This document shows positions 2 through 11,612 of a stretch of DNA of 13,239 bases, piece by piece; the first letter of the stretch is position 1, and every line of letters begins with the position of its first letter. The stretch lies in assembly GCA_052390515.1 (NCBI GenBank), contig JBQTGV010000109.1:1-13239 (forward strand). Reading direction: 5' to 3'. This stretch comes from Candidatus Eiseniibacteriota bacterium (GTDB taxonomy: Bacteria; ARS69). Position numbers and translations under genes: made by a program. Below the pieces are notes generated by a model that was not told the DNA's origin, ran no database searches, and was given only the letters and a program-made list of their open reading frames with translations.

Positions 2-1255
2 CGGGCCGAGCTCCGCGCCTTCGCCCTCACCGGAGACGAGGGCGGCCGCCAGGACGAGTCGCTGCGGCGCGCGCTGGCCGCGCTTCCGCCGTCGGGCCTC
101 CGCGAGCTCGCTCTGGGGGTCGCGGATCCGGCCGGGATGGCCCGCGTACAGCAGGAGCTCGCGCGGCGGGGAGAACCTCCCGCCGGCCCCGTGTTCCCTG
201 TCGCCCTCCTCGCGCCGCTCAGCGGAAAGCTGCAGGAGTTCGGCGAAGCGTTCCGCCTCGGAGTGCAGCTCGCGCTGGAGGACCGAGACGCGCGGGCTGC
301 CGCGGAGCATCGCGACATCCCGGAAGTGCGCCTCGTGGAGCGCGACACGGAGGGCGATCTGCTCACCGCCACGCACGCGGCGCGGGGCGTCGTGATCGAG
401 GAGGGCGCGCGCGCCGTCGTCGGACCGCTCCTGTCCGTGACCACGATCGCCGCGGGGAGCGTCGCGGAGTCGTACGGCGTTCCGCTGATCGCCCCGCTCG
501 CCACCGACCCGGAGCTGTCCACGATCGGCCGCTACGTGGTGACGATGGACTCCCCGCCCGAAGCGCTCGCGGCCCCGCTCGGCGAGTTCGCCGTGAGCGT
601 GCTCGGCGCGCGCCGGTTCGGCGTGCTGCTGCCCGACGACGGCGTATCCGCCGCCTACGAGCGCGCGTTCGAGTCCGCCGTGCGCGACGCCGGCGGGGAA
701 GTCGTCGTCTCCCTCGCCTTCGAGCCCGGCGAAACGGACTTCCGCAAGTTGATCGAGCGCGTCGATCGTGAGGAAGTGGATGCGTTGTACGTGCCCGGTG
801 CCGGCTCCGACCTCGGCGCGCTGGCTTCGCAGCTCGACTTCTACGAATTCCACCGCCGCATCCTCGGGCACGGCGCGTGGACCCATCCGGACGTGTTGAC
901 CCCGGGCAATCGTTCGCTCGAGGGCGCGGTCCTCTCTCTCCTCGAGTCCGACCACCCCGATTCGGAGTTCCTGATGGCGCTCGGAGAGAAGGTGCGGCAC
1001 CGTTCGGCCGAGGAGGTCTCGCGCTTCCACGTCCAGGGCTACCGGGCGATGGCCGCGCTCCTGATGGTCGTCGACCGGGGTGCGCGCGGCGGCGAGGAGA
1101 TCGCCGAATCGCTTCGCCTGCGCCGCTTCTGGGCGGAGCCGCCGCCGGGCGAACGCATCCACCTGGTCACCTGGCGGGACGGCGTGCTCGGTCCGGCGAG
1201 CTGGGCCGGCGCCTTCGATCTCGCGCCGGACTCCACAGCGTCCGGCGGCGAATGA
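2..1255 (+). CDS. 5'-partial class-I periplasmic binding protein fold (LppC/LpoA-like PBP activator or LivJ-like ABC substrate-binding family)
   Basis: The frame of ORF 137..1255 is open back to position 2 (RAELRAFALTGDEGGRQDESLRRAL...), so the true start lies upstream of the window. Motifs VALLAPLSGK..FGEAFRLG, ERDTEGD, AVVGPLLS, GVPLIAP, FEPGETDF and DALYVPG match the type-I PBP fold. ASQLDFYE..ILGHGAW resembles LppC-like members. The helical segment upstream suggests an extra N-terminal domain. Confidence 0.75.
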   Translation, partial: RAELRAFALTGDEGGRQDESLRRALAALPPSGLRELALGVADPAGMARVQQELARRGEPPAGPVFPVALLAPLSGKLQEFGEAFRLGVQLALEDRDARAAAEHRDIPEVRLVERDTEGDLLTATHAARGVVIEEGARAVVGPLLSVTTIAAGSVAESYGVPLIAPLATDPELSTIGRYVVTMDSPPEALAAPLGEFAVSVLGARRFGVLLPDDGVSAAYERAFESAVRDAGGEVVVSLAFEPGETDFRKLIERVDREEVDALYVPGAGSDLGALASQLDFYEFHRRILGHGAWTHPDVLTPGNRSLEGAVLSLLESDHPDSEFLMALGEKVRHRSAEEVSRFHVQGYRAMAALLMVVDRGARGGEEIAESLRLRRFWAEPPPGERIHLVTWRDGVLGPASWAGAFDLAPDSTASGGE

Positions 1256-2352
1256 GGCGAGCGGCGGCGGCGGCCGGCGCCCCGCTGACGCTCTCGGCCA
1301 GCGAACCGAGCGAAGCTCCGGCGGACCGACCCATCGTGCTCGGCGCGGTGCTCCCGCTCTCCGGTGAGGAGGCGCACACCGGCGAAGAGATTCTCGAGGG
1401 ACTCGAGCTGGCCGCCGAGGTCGAGGATGCGGCACCGCCGCTCGCCATCCGGGCGGCCGACGGCGAGGCGGCGCCTGCCGCGTCGGTGCACGCGTTCCGC
1501 GAGCTGGCCGGCGATCCGGAAGTGTCCGCGGTCGTGGGCGGCTGGTTCGCGTCGACCGGCCGGACGCTGACCGCGGTCGCCGGGACGGCGGGCGTGCCGT
1601 TGCTCGTCCTCTCGCCGCTGGCGGGAGCCAGCCAGGGCGACGTGTTCCCGCTGCATCGCATCTCCGCGCTCGGCGAGGCGGCGGCCCGGTTCGCGTACGA
1701 CGAGCTGGACGCGCGGCGGGCCGGCATTCTCCGGCTGCCCGGCGGCGAGGTCTCCGGCAGGCTCGCCGACGCGTTCGCCGCGGCGTTCACGCGCCCGGAC
1801 TCGCGGCTCGTCTGGTCCATCTCGCCGGACGGCGCGGGCAGGCTCGCGCTCCCCGCGGGGCCGGCCGAGCCGGTCGACGCGATCTTCGTGGCGGGCGCAG
1901 GGGAGTGGGCGGAGCGCTGCTCGGCGCTGGGTGCGTCCACGCGCGAGGCCGCGATCCTCACCGTGACCGGGTGGCAGACGGACGGTCTCGATCGACTCGC
2001 GGCCGGCGGCGTACCGGTCTACCTCGTGTCGTTCTTCAGCGCCACCGATCCCTCGCCGGCGAACCGGCGGCTGCTGGAGGCCTGCGCGCGGACCGGACGC
2101 GAGCCCACGCCGGCCCTGGCGCTGGGGTGGGACGTGGGTCGGCTCATCCGGCACGCCGCCTTGGTAGGCGGCCGCGACCGCGACGGCATTCGCACCGGTC
2201 TCCGCGGGGGGGCGCCGTTCTCCGGCGCGACGGGGAGGCTCGACTTCGGCTGGGCCGGGACGCCGAGGGAGACCCCGGCGGTGTCGTCCCTGTCCTCCGC
2301 CGGCCTCGTGTTCCTGAGGCGCGTGGAGGTGCCGGCCCAGGGCGGGGGTTGA
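1252..2352 (+). CDS. Class-I periplasmic binding protein fold (LivJ/Peripla_BP_6-like), 366 aa
   Basis: ATG at 1252 overlaps the previous TGA (ATGA, 1252-1255); the track's 877 start lies inside gene 1. Motifs IVLGAVLPLSG..G.EI.EG, SAVVGGW, GVPLLVLSP, ALGWD and FSGATGRLDF are typical of the family. The N-terminus resembles a signal peptide. Confidence 0.75.
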   Translation: MRRAAAAAGAPLTLSASEPSEAPADRPIVLGAVLPLSGEEAHTGEEILEGLELAAEVEDAAPPLAIRAADGEAAPAASVHAFRELAGDPEVSAVVGGWFASTGRTLTAVAGTAGVPLLVLSPLAGASQGDVFPLHRISALGEAAARFAYDELDARRAGILRLPGGEVSGRLADAFAAAFTRPDSRLVWSISPDGAGRLALPAGPAEPVDAIFVAGAGEWAERCSALGASTREAAILTVTGWQTDGLDRLAAGGVPVYLVSFFSATDPSPANRRLLEACARTGREPTPALALGWDVGRLIRHAALVGGRDRDGIRTGLRGGAPFSGATGRLDFGWAGTPRETPAVSSLSSAGLVFLRRVEVPAQGGG

Positions 2353-2370
2353 CGCTCGGAAACCCCCGTC
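2341..2370 (+). repeat. Inverted repeat/hairpin spanning the stop codon of gene 2 (possible terminator or operator)
   Basis: GGCGGGGGTT (2341-2350) pairs with AACCCCCGTC (2361-2370): 10-bp stem with one G-U pair and a 10-nt loop. No poly-U tail follows. Confidence 0.4.
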
Positions 2371-2378
2371 GCTACATT
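2349..2378 (+). promoter_or_regulatory. Putative sigma70-type promoter for the selA-smc-ftsY run
   Basis: TTGACG at 2349-2354 (-35, 5/6 match), 18 bp spacer, TACATT at 2373-2378 (-10, keeps T1, A2, T6). It sits in the only long intergenic gap and stands out against the very GC-rich background. Confidence 0.5.
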
Positions 2379-2434: not shown

Positions 2435-3823
2435 TTGCAGGAAGCGCTTCGCCAGATTCCTTCGGTCGACCAGGTGCTCGCGGCGCCCACCGTGCGCGGG
2501 CTCCTCGAGCGGGAGCCGCGACCGGCGGTCGTGCGCGCGGTCCGCGCGCGCCTGGAGGCGATCCGCGGCGAGGTGCTCGCCGGGAACGGCGCGGCGGTGC
2601 CCACGCTCGAGCGGATTGCCGCCGACGTCGTGGAGCAGGTGCAGGGTCGCCCGCGCGGTCTTCGCCGCGTGCTCAACGCCACCGGCGTCGTGCTGCACAC
2701 CAATCTGGGTCGCGCGCGGCTCGCCGAGGCGGCGGTGCAGGCCATCGTCGAGACGGCGCAAGGAGCCTGCGATCTCGAGCTGGATCTCGCGACCGGGCGG
2801 CGCGGATCTCGCACCGAGCGCTTGGAGCGCCGCCTGTGCGAGATCACGGGTGCTTCCGCGGCGTTCGTCGTGAACAACAATGCCGGTGCCTTGGTGCTGG
2901 CGCTGAACGAGCTCGCCCAGGACCGCGAGGCAGTCGTGTCCCGCGGCGAGCTCATCGAGATCGGCGGCTCGTTCCGGCTGCCCGACGTGATGGCCCGGAC
3001 CGGCGCGCGCTTGGTGGAGGTCGGTACCACGAACCGCACGCACCTCGGAGACTACGAGCGCGCCATCGGGCCGCGCACCGGGCTCCTGCTGAAGGTGCAC
3101 CGCTCCAATTTCCGCCAGGACGGATTCGTCACCGAGCCTACGCTCGCCGACCTCGTGGCGCTCGGGCGGCGGCACGGGGTTCCGGTGCTGCACGATCTCG
3201 GTTCCGGCTCGCTGCACGAGACCGCCGCGACCCGCCGTGAGCCGAGGCTGTCCGACAGCCTCGCGCAGGGCGTGGACGTGGTGACCTTCTCGGGCGACAA
3301 GCTGCTCGGCGGGCCGCAGGCCGGGATCCTGCTCGGGAGCGCCGCCGTGCTCGACCGTCTCCGGAAGAACCCCGTGGCCCGGGCGCTCCGGGTCGACAAG
3401 TTCACCATCGCCGCCCTTGCAGCCACGCTGGATCTCCTGGAAGATGCGGATCGGGCGCGGGAGCTGGTGCCGACGCTGCGCGCGCTCGACGCGTCCCCGG
3501 AGGAGCTTGCCCGGCGGGCCGCCGCCATCGTGCGGGAGCTGGCCCGGTGCGATGACCTGAGCGTGCGCCCGGTCCCGGCTTCGAGCGAGGTCGGGGGCGG
3601 GGCGGCGCCGGCGGAGGATCTGCCGACGACCGCGGTCGCGCTCCGGCACCGCAGCTTGTCCGCGGAAGAGCTAGCCGCGGAGCTCCGCGGGCTCGCGACG
3701 CCGGTGATCGGCCGCATCGCCGCGGGCGAGGTCCTGCTCGATCCGAGGAGCCTGGATCCGGCCGAGGACTTGCTTTGCGCGCGGCTGATCGGGGACCGCT
3801 TCGGTCCGGGGGGAGGGGGCTGA
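2435..3823 (+). CDS. selA: L-seryl-tRNA(Sec) selenium transferase (selenocysteine synthase), 462 aa
   Basis: LRQIPSVD N-terminus, VLNATGVVLHTNLGRA, VVNNNAGA, SRGELIEIGGSFRLPDV, EVGTTNRTH, LLKVHRSNF, DLGSG, and the PLP-lysine motif FSGDKLLGGPQAG. TTG start with a weak SD. Confidence 0.97.
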   Translation: MQEALRQIPSVDQVLAAPTVRGLLEREPRPAVVRAVRARLEAIRGEVLAGNGAAVPTLERIAADVVEQVQGRPRGLRRVLNATGVVLHTNLGRARLAEAAVQAIVETAQGACDLELDLATGRRGSRTERLERRLCEITGASAAFVVNNNAGALVLALNELAQDREAVVSRGELIEIGGSFRLPDVMARTGARLVEVGTTNRTHLGDYERAIGPRTGLLLKVHRSNFRQDGFVTEPTLADLVALGRRHGVPVLHDLGSGSLHETAATRREPRLSDSLAQGVDVVTFSGDKLLGGPQAGILLGSAAVLDRLRKNPVARALRVDKFTIAALAATLDLLEDADRARELVPTLRALDASPEELARRAAAIVRELARCDDLSVRPVPASSEVGGGAAPAEDLPTTAVALRHRSLSAEELAAELRGLATPVIGRIAAGEVLLDPRSLDPAEDLLCARLIGDRFGPGGGG

Positions 3824-5307
3824 TGGGGACTGCCGCCGCCATTCGCGATCCGCGGGAGCTCGCCGCCGAGCTCTCGCTTCCGCTTCTCGGCACCGTGCCG
3901 CCGCCCGCCGCGGCCGAGGGCCCGGTCTCGCCGCGCGTCCCCGCGGACGCCGCGCGCCGTGACTCCCTGAAGGCGGTCGCCGATCGCATCCTTGCGGGGC
4001 CCGGACCTGTCGAGGTGATCGGGCTGGCCGGAGACCTGCCGCCGGCCGAGCGTGCGGAACTGGCCGGGGCGCTGGCCGCCGTCCTCGCCGGCGAGCGGAG
4101 CACCGTGCTGATCGACGCGGACCTGCGCGGCGCACACCTGGCCTTCGAGGCTTCGTCGCGGGCGCAGGAAGGGCTCGTCGACGTGCTGCGCTACGGCGTC
4201 CGTTCGCCGCGCGTGGTCGGTCCCACGGGGACGCCGGGGCTGAGCCTCCTGCCCGTCGGCTCCGGGACCGTGGATGTCGCCGGGACCTACGCGTCGGATG
4301 CGGCCGTGCCGCTCTTCGCCGAGCTCCGCCGCGGCGGCGATCTGCTCGTGGTGAACGGGCCGGATCCTCGGGACGCGGGTGCCGCCGGGCGTCTCCTCGA
4401 CCTCGTCGGCGGGTGGATCCTGGTGGGCTCGGCCGCCGCCGTGGACTCGTCGTCCCTCCTCTCGCTGCGGGATCGGCTGGGCCGCTCTCGGTGCGTCGGG
4501 GTCGTCGTGGTCGCGGCCGGGCCGCCCGTGACCGCCCCTCCGGCGCCGCGCGCGCCGCTCGCTTCTGCGGTCGCCGCGAAGGCACCTGCGCGGGATCTCT
4601 CCGCACGCGTCGAGCCGGAGCCCGCGTCGCGCGTCGAGCCGCCCCGGTCTTCACCGCTCCGGGTGTGGGGAATCGGGCTCGCCGGCCTCGCTGCGGTGGT
4701 GCTCGCCGTGGTGTTGCTGCGTCCCGCGGACCGGATCGAGCGGCCCGAGCCGAGCGTGGAGCGCAGCGCGGAACCGCGCGTGCTCCCACCCACGGAATCG
4801 ACGTACACCGAGCAGCGCGTAGAGGAACCGCCGGCGCCGGTGAGCGCCCCGCTCACAGAGACCCTCCCGCAGGGGGCTTGCCCCGCGCCGGACTCGCCGG
4901 CGCCCGCGTCGGTACCGCGGGCGCCGGCGGCGGTCGCGGTGCCGGCGCGCGCAACGGTCGAGCCGCCAGCTCCGCCCGCGGTCCAGCCGTCCCCCGCATC
5001 CGCTCTCGCTCCGGCGGCTCCGACCCCTGGCGGGATCTGGGGCGTGCATCTCGCGTCGATGCGCACCGTGGCCGGCGCCCGCGAGGAGGAGGCGCGCTTC
5101 ACCGCGAAGGGCTTCGCCACGGTGCTCCGCGAGGTCGAGATCGAGGGCAAGGGACGTTGGGTCCGCGTCTACGTCGGACCGTTCGCGGACCGGAACCAAG
5201 CGAGCGAGGCGGCGGCGCGCGTTCGCGCGCTCGGGTTGCAGGAGTACGCGCAGGTGCAGCGGCTTCCGGCGGAGGAGAGCGTCGGGACGGGACGGGAGGA
5301 TCGATGA
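3823..5307 (+). CDS. Bitopic membrane protein: degenerate Wzc/CapB (BY-kinase, ParA/MinD superfamily) domain + TM helix + Pro/Ala linker + C-terminal SPOR domain, 494 aa
   Basis: ATG 3823 overlaps the selA TGA (TGATG), preceded by GGAGG. IRDPRELAAELSLPLLGTVP, VLIDADLRG (DADLR 4114-4128), EGLVDVLR, GLSLLPVGS and CVGVVV are Wzc-like. TM helix VWGIGLAGLAAVVLAVVLL (4663-4719). SPOR-like WGVHLASMR...KGF...KGRWVRVYVGPFADRNQASEAA (about 5035-5262). Confidence 0.8.
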   Translation: MGTAAAIRDPRELAAELSLPLLGTVPPPAAAEGPVSPRVPADAARRDSLKAVADRILAGPGPVEVIGLAGDLPPAERAELAGALAAVLAGERSTVLIDADLRGAHLAFEASSRAQEGLVDVLRYGVRSPRVVGPTGTPGLSLLPVGSGTVDVAGTYASDAAVPLFAELRRGGDLLVVNGPDPRDAGAAGRLLDLVGGWILVGSAAAVDSSSLLSLRDRLGRSRCVGVVVVAAGPPVTAPPAPRAPLASAVAAKAPARDLSARVEPEPASRVEPPRSSPLRVWGIGLAGLAAVVLAVVLLRPADRIERPEPSVERSAEPRVLPPTESTYTEQRVEEPPAPVSAPLTETLPQGACPAPDSPAPASVPRAPAAVAVPARATVEPPAPPAVQPSPASALAPAAPTPGGIWGVHLASMRTVAGAREEEARFTAKGFATVLREVEIEGKGRWVRVYVGPFADRNQASEAAARVRALGLQEYAQVQRLPAEESVGTGREDR

Positions 5308-8300
5308 ATCTCAGGAAGCTCGAGCTGTTCGGCTTCAAGTCGTTCATGCGCAAGCTGGACATCCACTTTTCCGACGGCATCACCGTGATCGTGGGGCCGA
5401 ACGGCTGCGGCAAGACGAACGTGACCGACGCGGTGCGCTGGGTGCTGGGGGAGAGCAACGCGCGAACGCTGCGCGGGGCGAAGATGGAGGACCTCATCTT
5501 CAACGGCACCGCCGACTACAAGCCGCTGAACGTGGCCGAGGTCGAGCTCACCGTGGACAACTCCTCGGGCATCCTGCCCATCGACTACTCCGAGGTCACG
5601 GTCACGCGCCGCATCTACCGCGAGGGCGAGCCCGAATTCCTGATCAACAAGGTGCCGGCGCGCATGCGCGACGTGCACGACCTGTTCATGGACACGGGAC
5701 TCGGCAGCCGGGCGTACTCGGTGATCGAGCGCGAGATGGTGGAGATGGTCCTCGCCGATCAGCCGGAGAAGCGCCGCGAGCTCATCGAGGAGGCGGCGGG
5801 GATCCACAAGTACAAGATCCGCGAGCGGCAGGCGCGGCGGAAGCTGGAGTCGACGGACGCGGACCTGCATCGCATCTCCGACGTTCTGCGCGAGGTGGAG
5901 CGGCAGGTGCGGTCGCTGAAGCGGCAGGTCGGCGCGGCGCAGCGCTTCCAGGAGATCCGCGACCGGCAGCGCGAGCTCGAGGTGGCGCTCGCCTGGGTGG
6001 ACCTCGAGGAGATGGACGGACGGACCGCGTCGCTCCGCGAAGCGTTGGCCGAGAACGAGACCGAGCGGCTGGGTGCCGGCAGCCGCATCGCCGCCGTCGA
6101 GGCGGAGCTGGAGGCACTCCGCGTGCGCATGACCGAGGCGGAGCACCGGCTGGCCGACCAGCAGCGCGAAGTGGACCGTCTGGCGGACGACGCGCGCGCC
6201 GCGGAGAGCGAAGTGCTGGTCCGGCGGGAGCGCCGCGACGCGCTCGCGGAGTCCGCACGGCGGCTCGCCCGGGAGCGGGAAGAGCTCGGCGAACGCCTCA
6301 CCGAGGGCGCGCAGCGCGGCGAGCGGCTGGCCGCCGCGCACGCGGAGTCGACCGCGCTCCTGGCAGGCGTCGAGGGTCGGCTGCACGTCGAGGAAGAGAG
6401 CCTCGGGCGCCTCGATTCGGACCTCGCCAGCCGGCGCGCGGGCCTGGCTCGTGCGCGCGAGATGGTGGAGGCCGCCTCGCAGGACGTGGGGCGCCTGCGC
6501 ACCGAGCTCGCCAACGTGGAGGCCAGGGCCGCGCATCTCGCCGATCGCCGCACCGCACTGGAGGCGGAGACTCGCGAGCTCGCGGCGCGGCTGGCAGGGC
6601 GCGAGCGGGGGCTGGCGGAGGCGGCGGAGCGAATCCGCGGCCTTCGCTCCGGTCTCGAGCAGTGTGAGCGCGAGCTCGAGTCCGCGGGGGCGGAGCGCGA
6701 CGCGCTCGACTCGCGCCGCGACTCGGCGAGGGAAGAGGACGCGCGTCTCGCCGTCGAGGTGGAGTCGGCGCGGTCCGGACTGGAGATGCTCTCCGCGCTG
6801 CAGTCCGCGTACGAGGGCTACGGCCAGGGCGCCCGGGCGCTGCTGCTGCGCGGCGGCCCGTATTCGCCGCTCGCCGATCTGGTGAAGCCGGCGCGTGAGG
6901 ATCTGCTTCCGGCGCTCGAGGCGGCGCTCGAGGGCGCGGTGGAGTTCGTGGTCGCCCGCGACTCGTCCGCCGTGTCCGACGCGGTGCGCTGGCTCCGCTC
7001 CGGCGAAGGCCGCGCCACGATTCTCGACGCGACCGGCTTCCGCGGCGACGGGGCGAAGAACGCGCCGGCCGCCGTGACCGCGGACGCCGCGGTGCTCGGG
7101 CCGGTGCGCGCGTTCCTGCACGCGGAGGGCGAGCTCGGCGCCGTGCTGGATCATCTCACCGCCGGCATGTTCGTCGTGGAGTCGCTGGAGGACGCGGTGC
7201 GCCTCGCGCGGCGTGCCGATTCCCGGGGGCTGCGCTTCGTCGCGCGCAACGGGGACTGGGCCGAGCATCCCGGCATCGTTCGTGGAGGCACTCCGGCCGC
7301 CTCCGGCGAGAGCCGCCTCCTGGGACGTGCCGCCCGCGTGGCCGAGCTCGGCGCGCGCGTCGCCGAGGCCGAGGAGCGCCGCCAGGCGGCGCGCCGGCGC
7401 GCGCAAGCGTTCTCCGTCGAGCGCGAGTCGCTCGCAGCGCGGATGGAAGAGCTCCGCGCCGCCGCTTCGGCCGCACGGGAGACGCTGCTCGCCGAGGAGC
7501 GCATCGCCGAGAGGCTGCGCGCCGAGACGGCCGCGGGCGAAGGGCGCCGCGACGCCGTTCGCCTCGAGCTCGGCGAGGTCGCGACGTCGCTGGAGGATCT
7601 GGCACGCGAGAAGCGTGCGCGCCTGTCGGCGCTGGACGAGGCCGAGGCCGGCCGCCTGCGGCTGGAGGAGGAGTGGAAGCGTCGGGAGAACGAGATCGTG
7701 GACTCCTCGGCGATGCGGGAGCACGCGCAGGCCGCCTGTCACGAGCTTCGCCTCGAGGCGCAACGGCTTCGCGGCGAGCTCGAGAAGATCGGGCTGGATG
7801 GCCAGCGCCTCGAGGAATCGCGCCAGACCGTCGAGCAGGGGCTCGCGCGCCGCGCCGCGGAGGCGGCGGACAACGAGCGGACCGCAGTCGAGCTGGGCCG
7901 GGAGATCGAGCTCGGCGAGGCGGAGGTCGCACGGCGCGTGCAGGTGCTCGCCGAGCGCAAGGCGGTGCGGGACCGTGCCGCGGACGAGCGCGGCGGGATC
8001 CTCGAGCAGCTCCGCACCGTGGACGAGGAGCGTGCCCGGTGGTCGCGGCTGCGCGACCAGTCCCAGGAGCTCTCCCACCGGAACGAGATGGAGCTCTCGC
8101 GACTGGAGTCCGCTCGCCACGAGCTGGTGGGGCGGGTGGAGCGGGAGTTCGGGGCGAGGCTCTCCCTGCCCGACGCGCGCGAGGCGCACGGGACGCTGGC
8201 CGGCGCCGACCCCGACGTGCTGGAGGCAGCCCGCCGCGAGCTGGAGGAGCTGCGGCGCACCGTCGACCGCATGGGCGCGGTGAACCTCGTGGCGCTCGAG

Positions 8301-8966
8301 CAGTACGAGCGCGAGGAGAAGCGCTACGAGTTCTTGAAGACCCAGCGCGACGATCTGGAGGAGGCGCGGGAGAAGCTGCACCGTACGATCCGCAAGATCA
8401 ACCGCACCGCGCGGACCCTGTTCATGGACACGCTCACCGCCGTGCAGGGCAACTTCCAGCGCACCTTCGGCACGCTCTTCGAGGGCGGCCACGCCGATAT
8501 CCGGCTCGTCGGCGACGAGGACCCGCTGCACGCGCCCATCGAGGTGTTCGCCAGGCCGCGAGGCAAGCGGCTCAACAGCATCTCGCTGATGTCCAGCGGC
8601 GAGCGGGCGCTGACCGCGGTGGCCTTCCTGTTCGCCATCTACCTGGTCAAGCCGAGTCCCTTCTGCATCCTCGACGAAGTCGACGCGCCGCTCGACGACG
8701 CCAACATCGGGCGCTTCTTGGCCATGCTCCGCGAGGTCTCCAAGAAGACGCAGTTCGTCATGATCACGCACAACAAGAAGACCATGGAGGTCGCCGACTA
8801 TCTGTACGGCGTCACCATGCAGGAGCCGGGCGTGTCGCAGCTCGTCTCCGTGCGGCTCGGGCGGGAAAGGGGCGATGGTCGCGTCGAGGAGACCGCCGAG
8901 GCCGACGAGGTGCCCGAGGAAGAGGACGCAGCGGAGGGGGAGCTCGTCGCGGAGGGCAGCGCTTGA
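5304..8966 (+). CDS. smc: Chromosome segregation protein SMC, 1220 aa
   Basis: True start is ATG 5304 (SD GGAGGA at 5295-5300; ATGA overlap), not 4413. LELFGFKSF, Walker A GPNGCGKTN, LRGAKMEDLIFNG, FMDTGLG, EEAAGI, long coiled coils, central hinge (NGDWAEHPGIVRGG), GAVNLVA, Walker B/D-loop CILDEVDAPLDDAN, H-loop ITH, YGVTMQEPGVS. Confidence 0.98.
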   Translation: MNLRKLELFGFKSFMRKLDIHFSDGITVIVGPNGCGKTNVTDAVRWVLGESNARTLRGAKMEDLIFNGTADYKPLNVAEVELTVDNSSGILPIDYSEVTVTRRIYREGEPEFLINKVPARMRDVHDLFMDTGLGSRAYSVIEREMVEMVLADQPEKRRELIEEAAGIHKYKIRERQARRKLESTDADLHRISDVLREVERQVRSLKRQVGAAQRFQEIRDRQRELEVALAWVDLEEMDGRTASLREALAENETERLGAGSRIAAVEAELEALRVRMTEAEHRLADQQREVDRLADDARAAESEVLVRRERRDALAESARRLAREREELGERLTEGAQRGERLAAAHAESTALLAGVEGRLHVEEESLGRLDSDLASRRAGLARAREMVEAASQDVGRLRTELANVEARAAHLADRRTALEAETRELAARLAGRERGLAEAAERIRGLRSGLEQCERELESAGAERDALDSRRDSAREEDARLAVEVESARSGLEMLSALQSAYEGYGQGARALLLRGGPYSPLADLVKPAREDLLPALEAALEGAVEFVVARDSSAVSDAVRWLRSGEGRATILDATGFRGDGAKNAPAAVTADAAVLGPVRAFLHAEGELGAVLDHLTAGMFVVESLEDAVRLARRADSRGLRFVARNGDWAEHPGIVRGGTPAASGESRLLGRAARVAELGARVAEAEERRQAARRRAQAFSVERESLAARMEELRAAASAARETLLAEERIAERLRAETAAGEGRRDAVRLELGEVATSLEDLAREKRARLSALDEAEAGRLRLEEEWKRRENEIVDSSAMREHAQAACHELRLEAQRLRGELEKIGLDGQRLEESRQTVEQGLARRAAEAADNERTAVELGREIELGEAEVARRVQVLAERKAVRDRAADERGGILEQLRTVDEERARWSRLRDQSQELSHRNEMELSRLESARHELVGRVEREFGARLSLPDAREAHGTLAGADPDVLEAARRELEELRRTVDRMGAVNLVALEQYEREEKRYEFLKTQRDDLEEAREKLHRTIRKINRTARTLFMDTLTAVQGNFQRTFGTLFEGGHADIRLVGDEDPLHAPIEVFARPRGKRLNSISLMSSGERALTAVAFLFAIYLVKPSPFCILDEVDAPLDDANIGRFLAMLREVSKKTQFVMITHNKKTMEVADYLYGVTMQEPGVSQLVSVRLGRERGDGRVEETAEADEVPEEEDAAEGELVAEGSA

Positions 8967-9898
8967 TCCGGAGCATCGGCCGCGGCCTCGACAAGCTCCG
9001 TGACGGCCTTCGCCGAACGCGCACGCAGCTCGAGAGCGGCATCCGCGCGATCGTGCAGGGTCGCGCGTCGATCGACGACAACATGTGGGAGGAGATCGAG
9101 GAGCTGCTCCTGGCGAGCGACGTGGGCGCTCCGGCGGCGGAGGAGATCGTCGCCGACCTGCGCCGCGCAGCCGGACGTTGGACCCGGCCGGACGCGGACG
9201 GGCTGTTCGAGGCGCTGCGCGAATCGCTGGCTGCGCGACTCACCAGCGGGGCCGGCCTCTCCCTGGACGGTGGCGAGGGCCCGGCGGTCGTCCTCGTCGT
9301 GGGCGTCAACGGCGCGGGCAAGACCACGACCATCGCGAAGCTGGCCGCGCGTATCAAGGGCACGGGCAAGAAGGTGGTCCTGGCGGCCGCCGACACCTAC
9401 CGCATGGCCGCGGTCGAGCAGCTCGCGGAGTGGGCGGCCCGCGTCGACGTCCCTGTGGTGCGCGGGCGCGAGGGGGCGGACGCGGCAGCGGTGGCGTTCG
9501 ACGGGCTCGAATCCGCCCTCGCGCGGCGCGCGGACGTCCTCCTGGTCGACACTGCCGGGCGGCTGCACACCAAGAGCAACCTGATGGAGGAGCTCGCCAA
9601 GGTGCGCAGGGTGCTGGAGAAGCGGCTCCCGGGCGCCCCCCACGAGGTCCTGCTGGTCCTCGACGCGACGACCGGTCAGAATGCCGTGCAGCAGGCGAAG
9701 GCGTTCGCCGGCATGGGAGTGACCGGCATCGTCCTGGCCAAGCTCGACGGGACCGCGCGCGGCGGCGTCGTGCTCGCCATCCGCCGGGAGCTCGACGTGC
9801 CGGTCAAGCTCGTCGGCATCGGCGAGCAGGTCGAGGACCTCGCCGACTTCGATCCGGTGGCCTTCGCCCGCGCGCTCGTCCCCGAGCCGGCTCCCTGA
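8963..9898 (+). CDS. ftsY: Signal recognition particle receptor FtsY (NG domain only), 311 aa
   Basis: TTG start at 8963 overlaps the smc TGA (TTGA), with SD GGAGG at 8951-8955. KLRDGLRRTR membrane-targeting helix, EIEELLLASDVG, G1 GVNGAGKTTTIAKLA, DTYR, DTAGRLH, LDATTGQNA, KLDGTARGG, GIGEQVEDL. smc-ftsY adjacency is a known gene order. Confidence 0.97.
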   Translation: MIRSIGRGLDKLRDGLRRTRTQLESGIRAIVQGRASIDDNMWEEIEELLLASDVGAPAAEEIVADLRRAAGRWTRPDADGLFEALRESLAARLTSGAGLSLDGGEGPAVVLVVGVNGAGKTTTIAKLAARIKGTGKKVVLAAADTYRMAAVEQLAEWAARVDVPVVRGREGADAAAVAFDGLESALARRADVLLVDTAGRLHTKSNLMEELAKVRRVLEKRLPGAPHEVLLVLDATTGQNAVQQAKAFAGMGVTGIVLAKLDGTARGGVVLAIRRELDVPVKLVGIGEQVEDLADFDPVAFARALVPEPAP

Positions 9899-9908
9899 AG
9901 GAGACGTA

Positions 9909-11612
9909 GTGCACGCATCGTCCTCCGGCCCTTCGCGGCCGCTGGATCAGGTCGCGCACCTGTTCCGCATCAGCGCGCAGCTGCTCGTCGCGACGGATCT
10001 GGACGAGCAGCTCCGGCTGGTAGCGCACGGCATCGTCGCGGCCTGCAACTACCGCCGCTGCGTCATCACGCTGTTCGATGACCACTGGCAGGTCTGGAAG
10101 CGCGCCCACGCCGGCCTGAGCCCGGCGGAAGCGGATGCCCTGGAGAGGACGCCGGCGCTGGACGCGGAGGTCCGCCGGCGGGTCCTGGACGAGCGCTACC
10201 GCATCGGCAACTCGTACTTCATTCCGCACGATTCGGCGATGGGAGCCCAGCTCTCGGACGTCGGCGTCTCCACCAGCCGCACGCGCGACGAGTTCGTCGA
10301 CTGGCATCCCGAGGACTTCCTGTTCGTTCCGCTGCGCGGCAAGGAAGGGAAGCTGCTGGGGACGATCTCCGTGGACGATCCGCTGGACGGCCGCAGGCCG
10401 ACCGCGGACAGCCTGTCGATCCTGGAGCTCTTCGCCCGCGAAGCCGCGTTCGTCATCGAGCAGAGCCTCCTGCTGCGCGAGCTGTCGCGGGCGGAGGGGT
10501 ACCTCGACAACGTGGTGACGAACTCCGCCGACGCCATCGTGACGACGGACACCGACGGCAAGATCATCATCTTCAACGAGGGCGCCCAGAAGATGCTGGG
10601 CTGGCTGCCGGAGGAGGTGGTGGGGAAGAGCGTCGTCCTGCTCTACGGATCGGAGAAGGACGCACGGCAGAACATGAGGCAGCTCATGACGCCGGGCGAG
10701 CACGAGCCCGGGCGCCTCGTCGGTCACGAGACCGCTCTCGTGTCCAAGAGCGGGGAGCGCATCCCGGTGTCCCTCTCCGCGTCGGCGCTGTACGACGCAG
10801 CGGGAGAGTTCCTCGGTACGGTGGGCATCTCCCGGGACCTTCGGCCCTGGAAGCGGCTGGAGAAGGAGCTCGTGCAGGCGGAGAAGGCGGCGACGGTCGC
10901 GGAGGTGGCCGCGACGCTGTGTCACGAGATCAACAACTTCCTCGAGGAGATCCTGTCCGCCGGCCAGGTCTCGTTGCTGACGCTCGATCTCGAGGAGGTC
11001 CGGCGCATGTACGAGTCCGCCGGCAAGACCGCCGAGCTGGACAAGGAGGTCGAGCGGCTTCAGGTGATCTCCCGCGAGGCGCTCAAGATCGCCTCGCTCA
11101 CGAGCCGGCTGCAGACCATGGCGGACCGCGGCGGGGGCTACGCCACGACCGAGTACGTCGGGGACATCCGCATGGCGGAGCTGCCCTCCAAGTCCCGGCC
11201 CGGAGCGGGCGGCAGGATCCTGGTGGCCGATGACCGCGAGTACATCCGCGAATTCCTCAAGGACTTCCTGGTGCTCGAGGGATTCCAGGTCGACACCGCC
11301 TCCGACGGTCGCGAGGCGCTGACCAAGGCGGAGGGCGAGCACTACGATCTCGTGCTCTCCGACATCAAGATGCCGCATCTGAACGGCTACGAAGTCTTCG
11401 CCGGGGTGCGCCGCGCCGATCCGAGGACGAAGGTCATTCTCATGACCGCGTACGGCTACGACCCGTCGCACTCCATCGTGAAGGCGTCGGGCGAAGGGCT
11501 CTCCGCGGTGCTGTACAAACCGTTCCACATGGCTCGCGTGCGGGACGCCATCCTGAAGGCGCTCGGCCGGAACGGCGGGAACGGGGAGGTGCGCGGCGGG
11601 AGCGTCGGGTGA
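9909..11612 (+). CDS. GAF-PAS-DHp(HisKA-like)-receiver signalling protein lacking HATPase_c, 567 aa
   Basis: SD AAGGAG at 9898-9903, GTG start. GAF-like region (LFVPLRGKEGKLLGTISVDDP), PAS/PAC (NSADAIVTTDTDGKIIIFNEGAQKMLGW...VGISRD), H-box ATLCHEINN (His 10923-10925), receiver ILVADD...LSDIKMP..NG...MTAYG...KPF (Asp 11361-11363). Confidence 0.88.
   Translation: MHASSSGPSRPLDQVAHLFRISAQLLVATDLDEQLRLVAHGIVAACNYRRCVITLFDDHWQVWKRAHAGLSPAEADALERTPALDAEVRRRVLDERYRIGNSYFIPHDSAMGAQLSDVGVSTSRTRDEFVDWHPEDFLFVPLRGKEGKLLGTISVDDPLDGRRPTADSLSILELFAREAAFVIEQSLLLRELSRAEGYLDNVVTNSADAIVTTDTDGKIIIFNEGAQKMLGWLPEEVVGKSVVLLYGSEKDARQNMRQLMTPGEHEPGRLVGHETALVSKSGERIPVSLSASALYDAAGEFLGTVGISRDLRPWKRLEKELVQAEKAATVAEVAATLCHEINNFLEEILSAGQVSLLTLDLEEVRRMYESAGKTAELDKEVERLQVISREALKIASLTSRLQTMADRGGGYATTEYVGDIRMAELPSKSRPGAGGRILVADDREYIREFLKDFLVLEGFQVDTASDGREALTKAEGEHYDLVLSDIKMPHLNGYEVFAGVRRADPRTKVILMTAYGYDPSHSIVKASGEGLSAVLYKPFHMARVRDAILKALGRNGGNGEVRGGSVG

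Follow-up and report, generated by a model that had tools for sequence, protein, structure and literature searches.

Gene and domain organization of the locus

The window analyzed here, a 13,239-nt stretch covering positions 1 to 13,239 of contig JBQTGV010000109.1 from a Candidatus Eiseniibacteriota bacterium (assembly GCA_052390515.1), contains between selA and smc a gene whose product joins a degenerate bacterial tyrosine (BY) kinase-like domain to a single transmembrane (TM) helix and a C-terminal SPOR domain. Because the G+C content of the window is high (67-77%), most of the listed open reading frames (ORFs) are shadows; the periodicity of third-position GC (GC3) revealed eight genes, all on the + strand. 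The ORF singled out by an initial annotation, which had been made from the sequence alone, is coding in + frame 1 by this measure and is a genuine gene of 494 aa (P0001). Its ATG at position 3823 agrees with the N-termini of its homologs and is preceded by a GGAGG-like Shine-Dalgarno sequence. The N-terminal domain likewise begins at residue 1-4 in nearly all of the full-length family members; it begins at residue 21 in P0014 and at residue 15 in P0032. The features of the gene and of its neighbors are listed in Table 1.

Table 1. Features of the target gene, followed by the other genes of the window (aa, residues of the 494-aa product)
Feature	Window position	Strand	Basis or remark
Target coding sequence: BY-pseudokinase and SPOR domains, with the TM helix between two linkers	3823-5307	+	GC3, translation, 26 homologs of like layout
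Predicted cytoplasmic BY-kinase-fold domain, aa 1-232	3823-4518	+	AlphaFold2, Foldseek, NCBIfam
N-terminal segment, aa 7-26 (IRDPRELAAELSLPLLGTVP)	3841-3900	+	Counterpart of the activator fragment at the CapA C-terminus and of the stretch behind TM2 in PCP-2a proteins
Degenerate Walker A, aa 67-79 (GLAGDLPPAERAE)	4021-4059	+	Lys absent and replaced by Arg77; Ala78 replaces Ser/Thr
Walker A', kept, aa 95-102 (VLIDADLR)	4105-4128	+	
Most conserved stretch, aa 114-151 (AQEGLVDVLRYGVRSPRVV.PT..GL.LLPVGS.T.D)	4162-4275	+	Long invariant runs in the 27-sequence alignment
Degenerate Walker B, aa 174-181 (LLVVNGPD)	4342-4365	+	Asn178 (4354-4356) in place of Asp
Predicted cytoplasmic Pro/Ala-rich disordered linker, aa 233-280	4519-4662	+	pLDDT <50; no Tyr cluster
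Single TM helix, aa 281-299	4663-4719	+	Best 19-residue Kyte-Doolittle window, 2.61; AlphaFold2 helix 283-299
Predicted periplasmic Pro/Ala/Glu-rich disordered linker, aa 300-402	4720-5028	+	pLDDT <50
SPOR domain, aa 403-481	5029-5265	+	Pfam, modelled fold, alignment with E. coli FtsN
C-terminal GTGREDR tail and stop	5284-5307	+	Overlies the smc Shine-Dalgarno sequence (GGGAGGA) and ATG (5304)
Peripla_BP_6 protein, first	137-1255	+	Pfam
Peripla_BP_6 protein, second	about 1252-2352	+	Pfam
selA	2435-3823	+	Pfam SelA, E = 7.3e-135
smc	5304-8966	+	Pfam SMC_N, SMC_hinge
ftsY	8963-9898	+	Pfam SRP54, SRP54_N; TTG start
GAF-PAS-receiver protein	9909-11612	+	Pfam
Polytopic membrane protein	11609 to window end	+	

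Predicted fold of the N-terminal domain

We built an AlphaFold2 (AF2) model on a 27-sequence alignment. Its mean predicted local distance difference test (pLDDT) score was 74.8, with 232 residues, spanning both domains, at 90 or above; the score exceeded 90 over most of aa 10-232, including the block at aa 11-40. When the model was compared with the PDB using Foldseek, all of the matches listed were CapAB, BceF, Wzc or Etk, as expected from the Wzc/CapB-like domain proposed in the initial annotation; the E values ranged from 9.3e-12 (3bfv, CapAB) to 9.1e-8, with a probability of 1.00, and the TM-scores for kinase-domain-only chains were 0.71-0.80.

Profile searches gave the same picture. A profile of ten N-terminal domains (N-domains), 46-53% identical to that of the window, matched the CapA1-CapB1 chimera 4jlv (E = 1.1e-5) and also Wzc, BceF, VpsO and Etk among the PDB sequences, and the only natural proteins found at E <= 0.0015 were BY-kinases. 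De novo TIM barrels, which topped this ranking, were rejected as spurious, since a single beta-alpha unit was matched over and over, for about 40 residues each time. The family profile was needed to reach the BY-kinases, and a phmmer search of the PDB with the single target sequence found nothing significant (VpsO, E = 1.5). In the 4jlv alignment, profile positions 8-229 were paired with chain residues 20-250, starting inside the CapA activator fragment, and matches of the type 2a polysaccharide co-polymerases (PCP-2a; P0039 and P0043, assigned by Pfam) aligned from profile position 4-8, immediately after their membrane part. The NCBIfam models TIGR03018 (E = 1.1e-7, 31.4 bits; cut-off, 230.65), TIGR01005 (E = 4.4e-7, 28.5 bits; cut-off, 411.7), TIGR03029 (15.1 bits; cut-off, 313.8) and TIGR01007 (11.8 bits; cut-off, 108.05) all matched the N-domain, as did EpsG (E = 0.0099); by sequence comparison these matches are sub-threshold but real, and they are to BY-kinase models only.

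In the predicted structure, aa 1-232 adopt the P-loop fold of the BY kinases, with the N-terminal segment that CapB receives from CapA in the CapAB pair included, and the likeness of the N-domain to BY-kinases is far beyond chance. The motifs follow the order of the canonical enzymes (activator, Walker A position, Walker A', GLxDxL/LPxG, Walker B position and final strand), and those named in the initial annotation are in place: IRDPRE...LSLPLLGTVP at aa 7-26, DADLR at aa 98-102, GLVDVL at aa 117-122, LSLLPVGS at aa 140-147 and VGVVV at aa 225-229. A search of the ESM Atlas with aa 1-235 returned only unnamed clusters and ParA, CbiA and AAA_31 clusters, consistent with the superfamily. The Pfam models ParA, CbiA and AAA_31 did not match the target at E <= 1, whereas they do match its intact relatives. 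The name "Mrp family ATPase" borne by some of the homologs is an automatic label from one source. The three positions of EX2RX2R, the ring-forming motif of BY-kinases, fall on non-conserved family positions in the alignment with CapA1B1, and a two-copy complex prediction of the N-domain scored 0.00, which counts neither way on oligomerization.

The target family and its sister family

A word-indexed search found 26 relatives of the target, 25 of which have a precomputed SPOR domain. When 1.84 billion representatives were searched exhaustively with the profile, 18 matches reached E <= 1e-30; full-length members scored at least 260 bits versus 74 bits for the best other protein. The search retrieved 4966 proteins at E <= 0.001, and those that were examined had generic BY-like domains. 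By these scores, the target family is isolated in sequence space. No Wzz-fused form was seen among the family members.

A BY-like N-domain combined with a C-terminal Pfam SPOR domain was also found in P0044, P0046, P0061, P0092 and P0137. These proteins belong to a sister family of about 24 sequences (the five named above and P0168-P0186), which is divergent and has the same BY-like/TM/SPOR layout. The search with P0061 gave 20 close relatives and one weak ParA-type match; the motifs of the sister family are TDxxEDPxARV in the P-loop and APA at Walker B. A further protein, P0160, has a SPOR-like end that was recognized by the family profile only; it may be a third variant of the layout.

A FastTree phylogeny (LG+gamma) was computed from 171 core columns of 178 sequences, with nine sequences of less than 75% coverage dropped. 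The target family (34 tips) and the sister family (22 tips) were recovered with support values of 0.986 and 0.979, respectively, and the split uniting both of them (56 tips) had a support of 0.965, suggesting that the two families share a single origin; the outgroup consisted of matches to the target-family profile and both groups are long-branched, so that attraction between them is possible.

Loss of catalytic motifs and conservation of the N-domain

Residues at the catalytic motifs were counted position by position with hmmalign, and the motifs were placed using a MAFFT alignment with intact BY-kinases. The target family comprised 38 sequences, including fragments, of which 35 cover Walker A and 37 cover Walker B; the sister family (n = 24) and other BY-like matches (n = 123) served as comparison sets. 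The target Walker A loop reads GDLPPAERA, having lost the P-loop glycines and gained a two-residue insertion. The Lys position is occupied by Arg in all 35 target-family sequences, and Lys is absent from all 24 sister sequences, whereas 83 of the 123 other BY-like matches have Lys. The sister P-loop is offset by an insertion in hmmalign, and MAFFT puts its Arg at the Lys position; Lys is absent either way. At the Ser/Thr position the target family has Ala (34 sequences) or Ser (one sequence), compared with Ser/Thr in 107/123 of the other matches. The Walker B Asp is replaced by Asn (36/37) or His (1/37) in the target family and is missing from the sister family (24/24); it is present in 103/123 of the other BY-like matches. 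The initial annotation had reported a Walker A without Lys at 4021-4059 and an LVVNGPDP with Asn178 at 4354-4356, and both lie where it had placed them; the alignment of homologs that it had called for revealed that the losses of the Walker A Lys and the Walker B Asp are conserved family-wide. Its claim that no Tyr cluster follows the domain also held: Tyr occurs only at residues 124, 156, 328, 450 and 475, with none between 157 and 327, and the 45 residues past the domain contain 0 to 2 Tyr across the 38 family members. Walker A' is kept, Asp98 and Asp100 being found in 35/35 target-family and 24/24 sister sequences, and Arg102 is also retained in both pseudokinase families.

Among the other BY-like matches, Arg replaces the Walker A Lys in 17/123, for example as GDGRT in the PCP-2a-like P0043, and the Walker B Asp is missing in about 20/123. 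Degeneration of the BY domain seems to be frequent among these relatives.

As judged from these motifs, the N-domain is likely to be catalytically dead. The alternative is that it acts as a non-canonical nucleotide or ligand switch through Arg77, Asp98/Asp100 and Asn178, either cycling in the manner of MinD/ParA or still phosphorylating. In its favor, Arg77 is invariant precisely at the Lys position and is matched by Arg in the 17 BY-like proteins mentioned above, and Asp98, Asp100 and Arg102 are kept in both families; EcpK, by contrast, is reported to lack all three Walker motifs (PMC12004946). However, the glycine-rich P-loop has been replaced by a loop that is two residues longer, Ser/Thr has given way to Ala, the Walker B Asp and the Tyr tail are absent, and the target matches none of the Pfam ParA, CbiA and AAA_31 models at E <= 1, unlike its intact relatives. 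We therefore regard a surviving switch as improbable.

The N-domain is under strong purifying selection, with 58 of 236 columns invariant among the ten N-domains. All 26 invariant columns of the 27-sequence alignment fall within aa 121-226, and aa 114-151 are invariant over long runs although the sequences are only about 40% identical overall. Tyr124 is common to the target and sister families (24/24 in the latter) and occurs in 2/123 of the other BY-like domains. The region aa 111-130 (QEGLVDVLRYGVRSPR; window 4153-4212) is the most conserved and was modelled with the least confidence in the domain (pLDDT 65-74), which fits a flexible loop that would become ordered upon binding of a partner. 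We take aa 114-151, with the invariant Tyr124, Arg127 and Arg130, as a candidate partner-binding surface.

Membrane topology and SPOR domain

The initial annotation had read one TM helix, a Pro/Ala linker and a SPOR domain after the kinase-like domain. This order was recovered by hydropathy (aa 281-299), by the composition of the two linkers (about 26% Pro and 20-23% Ala each) and by a Pfam SPOR match, and with it the inverted domain order, in which the membrane part comes after the kinase-like domain. The linker that follows the helix varies in length among the homologs, giving many gapped alignment columns. Since there is no signal peptide and SPOR domains act on peptidoglycan, the kinase-like domain would be cytoplasmic and the SPOR domain periplasmic; we infer an N-in/C-out topology like that of FtsN, DamX and DedD.

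The C-terminal check proposed in the initial annotation returned PF05036 (SPOR), the sole Pfam match of the target, which spans aa 403-474 (E = 3.6e-12; score, 46.9 bits; gathering cut-off, 21). The modelled fold is beta-alpha-beta-beta-alpha-beta (pLDDT 86-97), and DSSP assigned strands to residues 405-413, 433-440, 444-454 and 477-481 and helices to residues 416-428 and 457-469. Membership of the SPOR family is secure. Residues were mapped by alignment with Escherichia coli FtsN, translated from the MG1655 record. Residues Q251, S254, W283, R285 and I313 of FtsN are reported to be important for septal localization (PMC6895207). S254, W283 and R285 correspond to Ser412, Trp446 and Arg448 of the target, which are kept in all family members covering these positions (33, 32 and 32 sequences, respectively) and, in the sister family, in 22, 23 and 22 sequences. 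The column of I313 varies, and the alignment is uncertain there. Binding of glycan by the target SPOR domain is likely, though perhaps with a changed affinity or specificity, the position of Q251 being occupied by His409; SPOR domains bring proteins to septal denuded (amidase-processed) glycan (PMC6895207).

In E. coli FtsN the cytoplasmic part is a short N-terminal tail. The target resembles FtsN, DamX and DedD of E. coli in layout, with a predicted N-in part and one TM helix that leads through a Pro-rich periplasmic linker to a SPOR domain at the C-terminus; it differs from them in that its cytoplasmic part would be a folded 232-aa pseudoenzyme, in having His in place of FtsN Q251 and in lacking a match to the FtsN model (NCBIfam TIGR02223, cut-off 107.65; the target scores 11.4 bits, and the SPOR part alone is aligned). 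The shared topology and Pro-rich linker/SPOR layout, together with the names "DedD" and "FtsN" that were automatically given to homologs by their sources, raise the possibility that the protein is a divisome component of this type working in the periplasm and that its kinase-like domain is a functionless relic. However, the N-domain is the best conserved part of the protein, containing all of the invariant columns, and a relic would not show such conservation; the ftsN model score also speaks against it. A relic is thus very improbable.

Genomic context

The target gene is tightly packed between its neighbors. The selA stop and the target ATG share one base (TGATG, window 3821-3825), the target TGA overlaps the smc ATG (ATGA, 5304-5307), and the smc stop overlaps the ftsY TTG start (TTGA, 8963-8966). 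The sole sigma-70-like match of the window (2349-2378) lies just upstream of selA, and no terminator-like sites were found on the + strand of the window. The chained stop and start codons, the single promoter-like site and the lack of a terminator on this strand therefore indicate a translationally coupled selA-X-smc-ftsY transcription unit, where X is the target gene. It is unusual for a selenocysteine synthase gene to share an operon with smc and ftsY.

A genome scan identified nine loci, all in metagenome-assembled genomes (MAGs), four of which are labelled Gemmatimonadetes, Gemmatimonadota or Gemmatimonadales. Searches with the window proteins (tblastn) showed that the block PBP-PBP-selA-X-smc-ftsY-GAF/PAS/REC-membrane protein, where PBP denotes a Peripla_BP_6 gene, is collinear in all seven of the loci that are long enough; two short contigs retain selA-X. 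Identity to the window proteins across the loci is typically 64-74% for selA, 52-59% for SMC and 47-56% for the target N-domain. The GAF-PAS-receiver protein follows ftsY in all seven long loci (66-71% identical), and both Peripla_BP_6 genes are kept upstream of selA in the long loci; in some loci the two genes are separated by an insert of about 1.5 kb.

The GTGREDR tail of the target was considered as a sorting or recognition motif and was rejected. The DNA element ACGG(G)AGGA[T/A]CGATGAA occurs upstream of smc in 8/8 sequences (window 5284-5312, L002-L005 and L007-L009); it lies inside the target ORF, with the ATGA overlap, in four of them (window, L004, L005 and L007) and in a 16-30-nt spacer in the other four. 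Hence ACGGGAGGA[T/A]CGATGAA precedes smc whether or not it is translated, and the conservation of GTGREDR is explained by the ribosome-binding region of smc in the DNA there, with no need for a protein motif.

As regards the other genes of the window, the two Peripla_BP_6 proteins are tandem paralogs, the first of which has a weak LppC/LpoA match (E = 0.03, below the cut-off). The GAF-PAS-receiver protein is without HisKA, HATPase or a recognizable Pfam output domain. Rfam and tRNA scans of the window gave no match, and PADLOC gave no defense-system match.

Comparison with known systems and possible function

EcpK of Myxococcus xanthus and HfsB of Caulobacter crescentus are BY pseudokinases that are proposed to act by direct protein contact (PMC12004946). 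As in these two proteins, the target has a BY fold without a functional Walker A, Walker B or Tyr-rich tail. EcpK and HfsB are small, soluble, stand-alone proteins that are encoded among polysaccharide genes and contact a PCP-2 at its C-terminal tail. In contrast, the target has an activator-like segment in cis, a membrane anchor with a predicted periplasmic SPOR domain and a place in the selA-smc-ftsY operon, and it retains Walker A', whereas all three Walker motifs are reported to be absent from EcpK. In fold the target resembles Wzc and Etk of E. coli, CapA/CapB of Staphylococcus aureus, BceF and VpsO (by Foldseek and profile). Unlike canonical BY-kinases, however, it lacks the Walker A GK[S/T], the Walker B Asp and the Tyr cluster, has no Wzz/PCP part upstream, fused or adjacent, carries its TM helix C-terminal to the domain and scores 31 bits or less against NCBIfam cut-offs of 108-412.

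Every characterized BY kinase or pseudokinase pairs with a PCP (PMC12004946). In the main rival explanation, the genome encodes a kinase-less PCP-2 at another site and the target serves it as a BY pseudokinase, with the SPOR domain tethering a Wzx/Wzy export machine to peptidoglycan or the septum, comparable to CpsC/CpsD and the midcell capsule. The nearest intact relatives are either PCP-2a proteins (P0039 and P0043 with Wzz, P0039 also with GNVR) or stand-alone BY-kinases (P0040 and P0048), and the pneumococcal BY-kinase CpsD is septal (PMC4574921); both points suit such a partnership. Against it, no Wzx, Wzy, PCP or outer-membrane polysaccharide export (OPX) genes were recognized among the conserved neighbors within +/-8 kb in the seven long loci, where the stretches unmatched by window genes are unannotated, and the segment that a PCP tail would supply is present in cis, with pLDDT >90. 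We consider a PCP-2 partnership unlikely, if less so than a surviving nucleotide switch.

CpsD provides a parallel for a role at the division site. It contacts ParB as well as being septal (PMC4574921), and is thus a BY-fold protein at the division site tied to chromosome segregation; for the target, such placement is a proposal. CpsD is an active autokinase that is recruited by the membrane protein CpsC and encoded in a capsule locus, whereas the kinase-like domain of the target is degenerate, its placement would come from the fused SPOR domain, and its link to the chromosome comes solely from operon structure.

The explanation that we prefer, and to which we give about an even chance as a whole, is that the target is a SPOR-targeted bitopic pseudokinase serving as a cytoplasmic scaffold, probably for a partner from the chromosome or division machinery. 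The SPOR domain would bind amidase-denuded septal glycan and so concentrate the protein at the division site; the kinase-like domain would be unable to phosphorylate and would act as a protein-binding platform, as proposed for EcpK and HfsB; and the invariant surface at aa 114-151 would recruit or hold a cytoplasmic partner at the septum. The partner would most plausibly be part of the chromosome-organization or division machinery, since coupling to smc is fixed and CpsD sets a precedent by contacting ParB (PMC4574921). The initial annotation had titled the protein a tyrosine-kinase fold repurposed as a septal anchor; the fold stands, but the anchor would be the SPOR domain, and the kinase fold its cargo. 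That the protein is a scaffold and is held at midcell we infer from the arguments above. A narrower version, in which a septum-anchored adaptor reads denuded glycan through SPOR and, by means of its dead BY domain, keeps SMC, ParB or some related factor of the nucleoid at the closing septum, is a long shot. If true, it would make the protein a pseudoenzyme equivalent of the CpsD-ParB link and of systems for nucleoid occlusion or chromosome clearing, and the fixed coupling to smc would be functional and not historical.

Several observations weigh against a septal scaffold linked to the chromosome. The Gln homologous to FtsN Q251 is described as the only highly conserved polar contact of SPOR with glycan (PMC6895207), and this position (Q270 in RlpA) is occupied by His409 (window 5047-5049) in the target and by His in 33/33 family and 22/22 sister sequences; the target may therefore bind its ligand with an affinity or specificity unlike that of the SPOR domains studied so far. 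The kept DxD of Walker A' and the invariant Arg at the Lys position could reflect residual ligand binding instead of a pure scaffold. The adjacency to smc, in a collinear eight-gene block of one clade, may represent shared ancestry and not a functional link, and selA belongs to the same operon with no obvious tie to cell division. Finally, all family members come from uncultured MAGs.

A full-text literature search, with most subscription journals outside its reach, found no description of a BY-kinase/SPOR fusion, in line with the lack of a characterized precedent noted in the initial annotation. Neither BY pseudokinases nor bitopic SPOR proteins are new in themselves; what is new is the fusion and its genomic context. 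Until now, BY-kinase folds have been linked to polysaccharide co-polymerases, a machinery that the few pseudokinases described to date serve as well. The target family moves the fold out of the polysaccharide setting, fusing it to a septal-wall-binding module and fixing it beside smc, in a host lineage with almost no cell-biology data. The family also offers a natural example of stepwise pseudoenzyme evolution, in which Walker A and Walker B were lost, Walker A' was kept and a new invariant surface appeared, and its uniform Gln-to-His change is a testable variant for SPOR specificity. If the proposed role is true, the family would provide the first case of a BY-fold protein that peptidoglycan, instead of a PCP, recruits, and it would give a way to study how cell division in Gemmatimonadota-like bacteria is coordinated with the nucleoid or with the synthesis of envelope polysaccharides.

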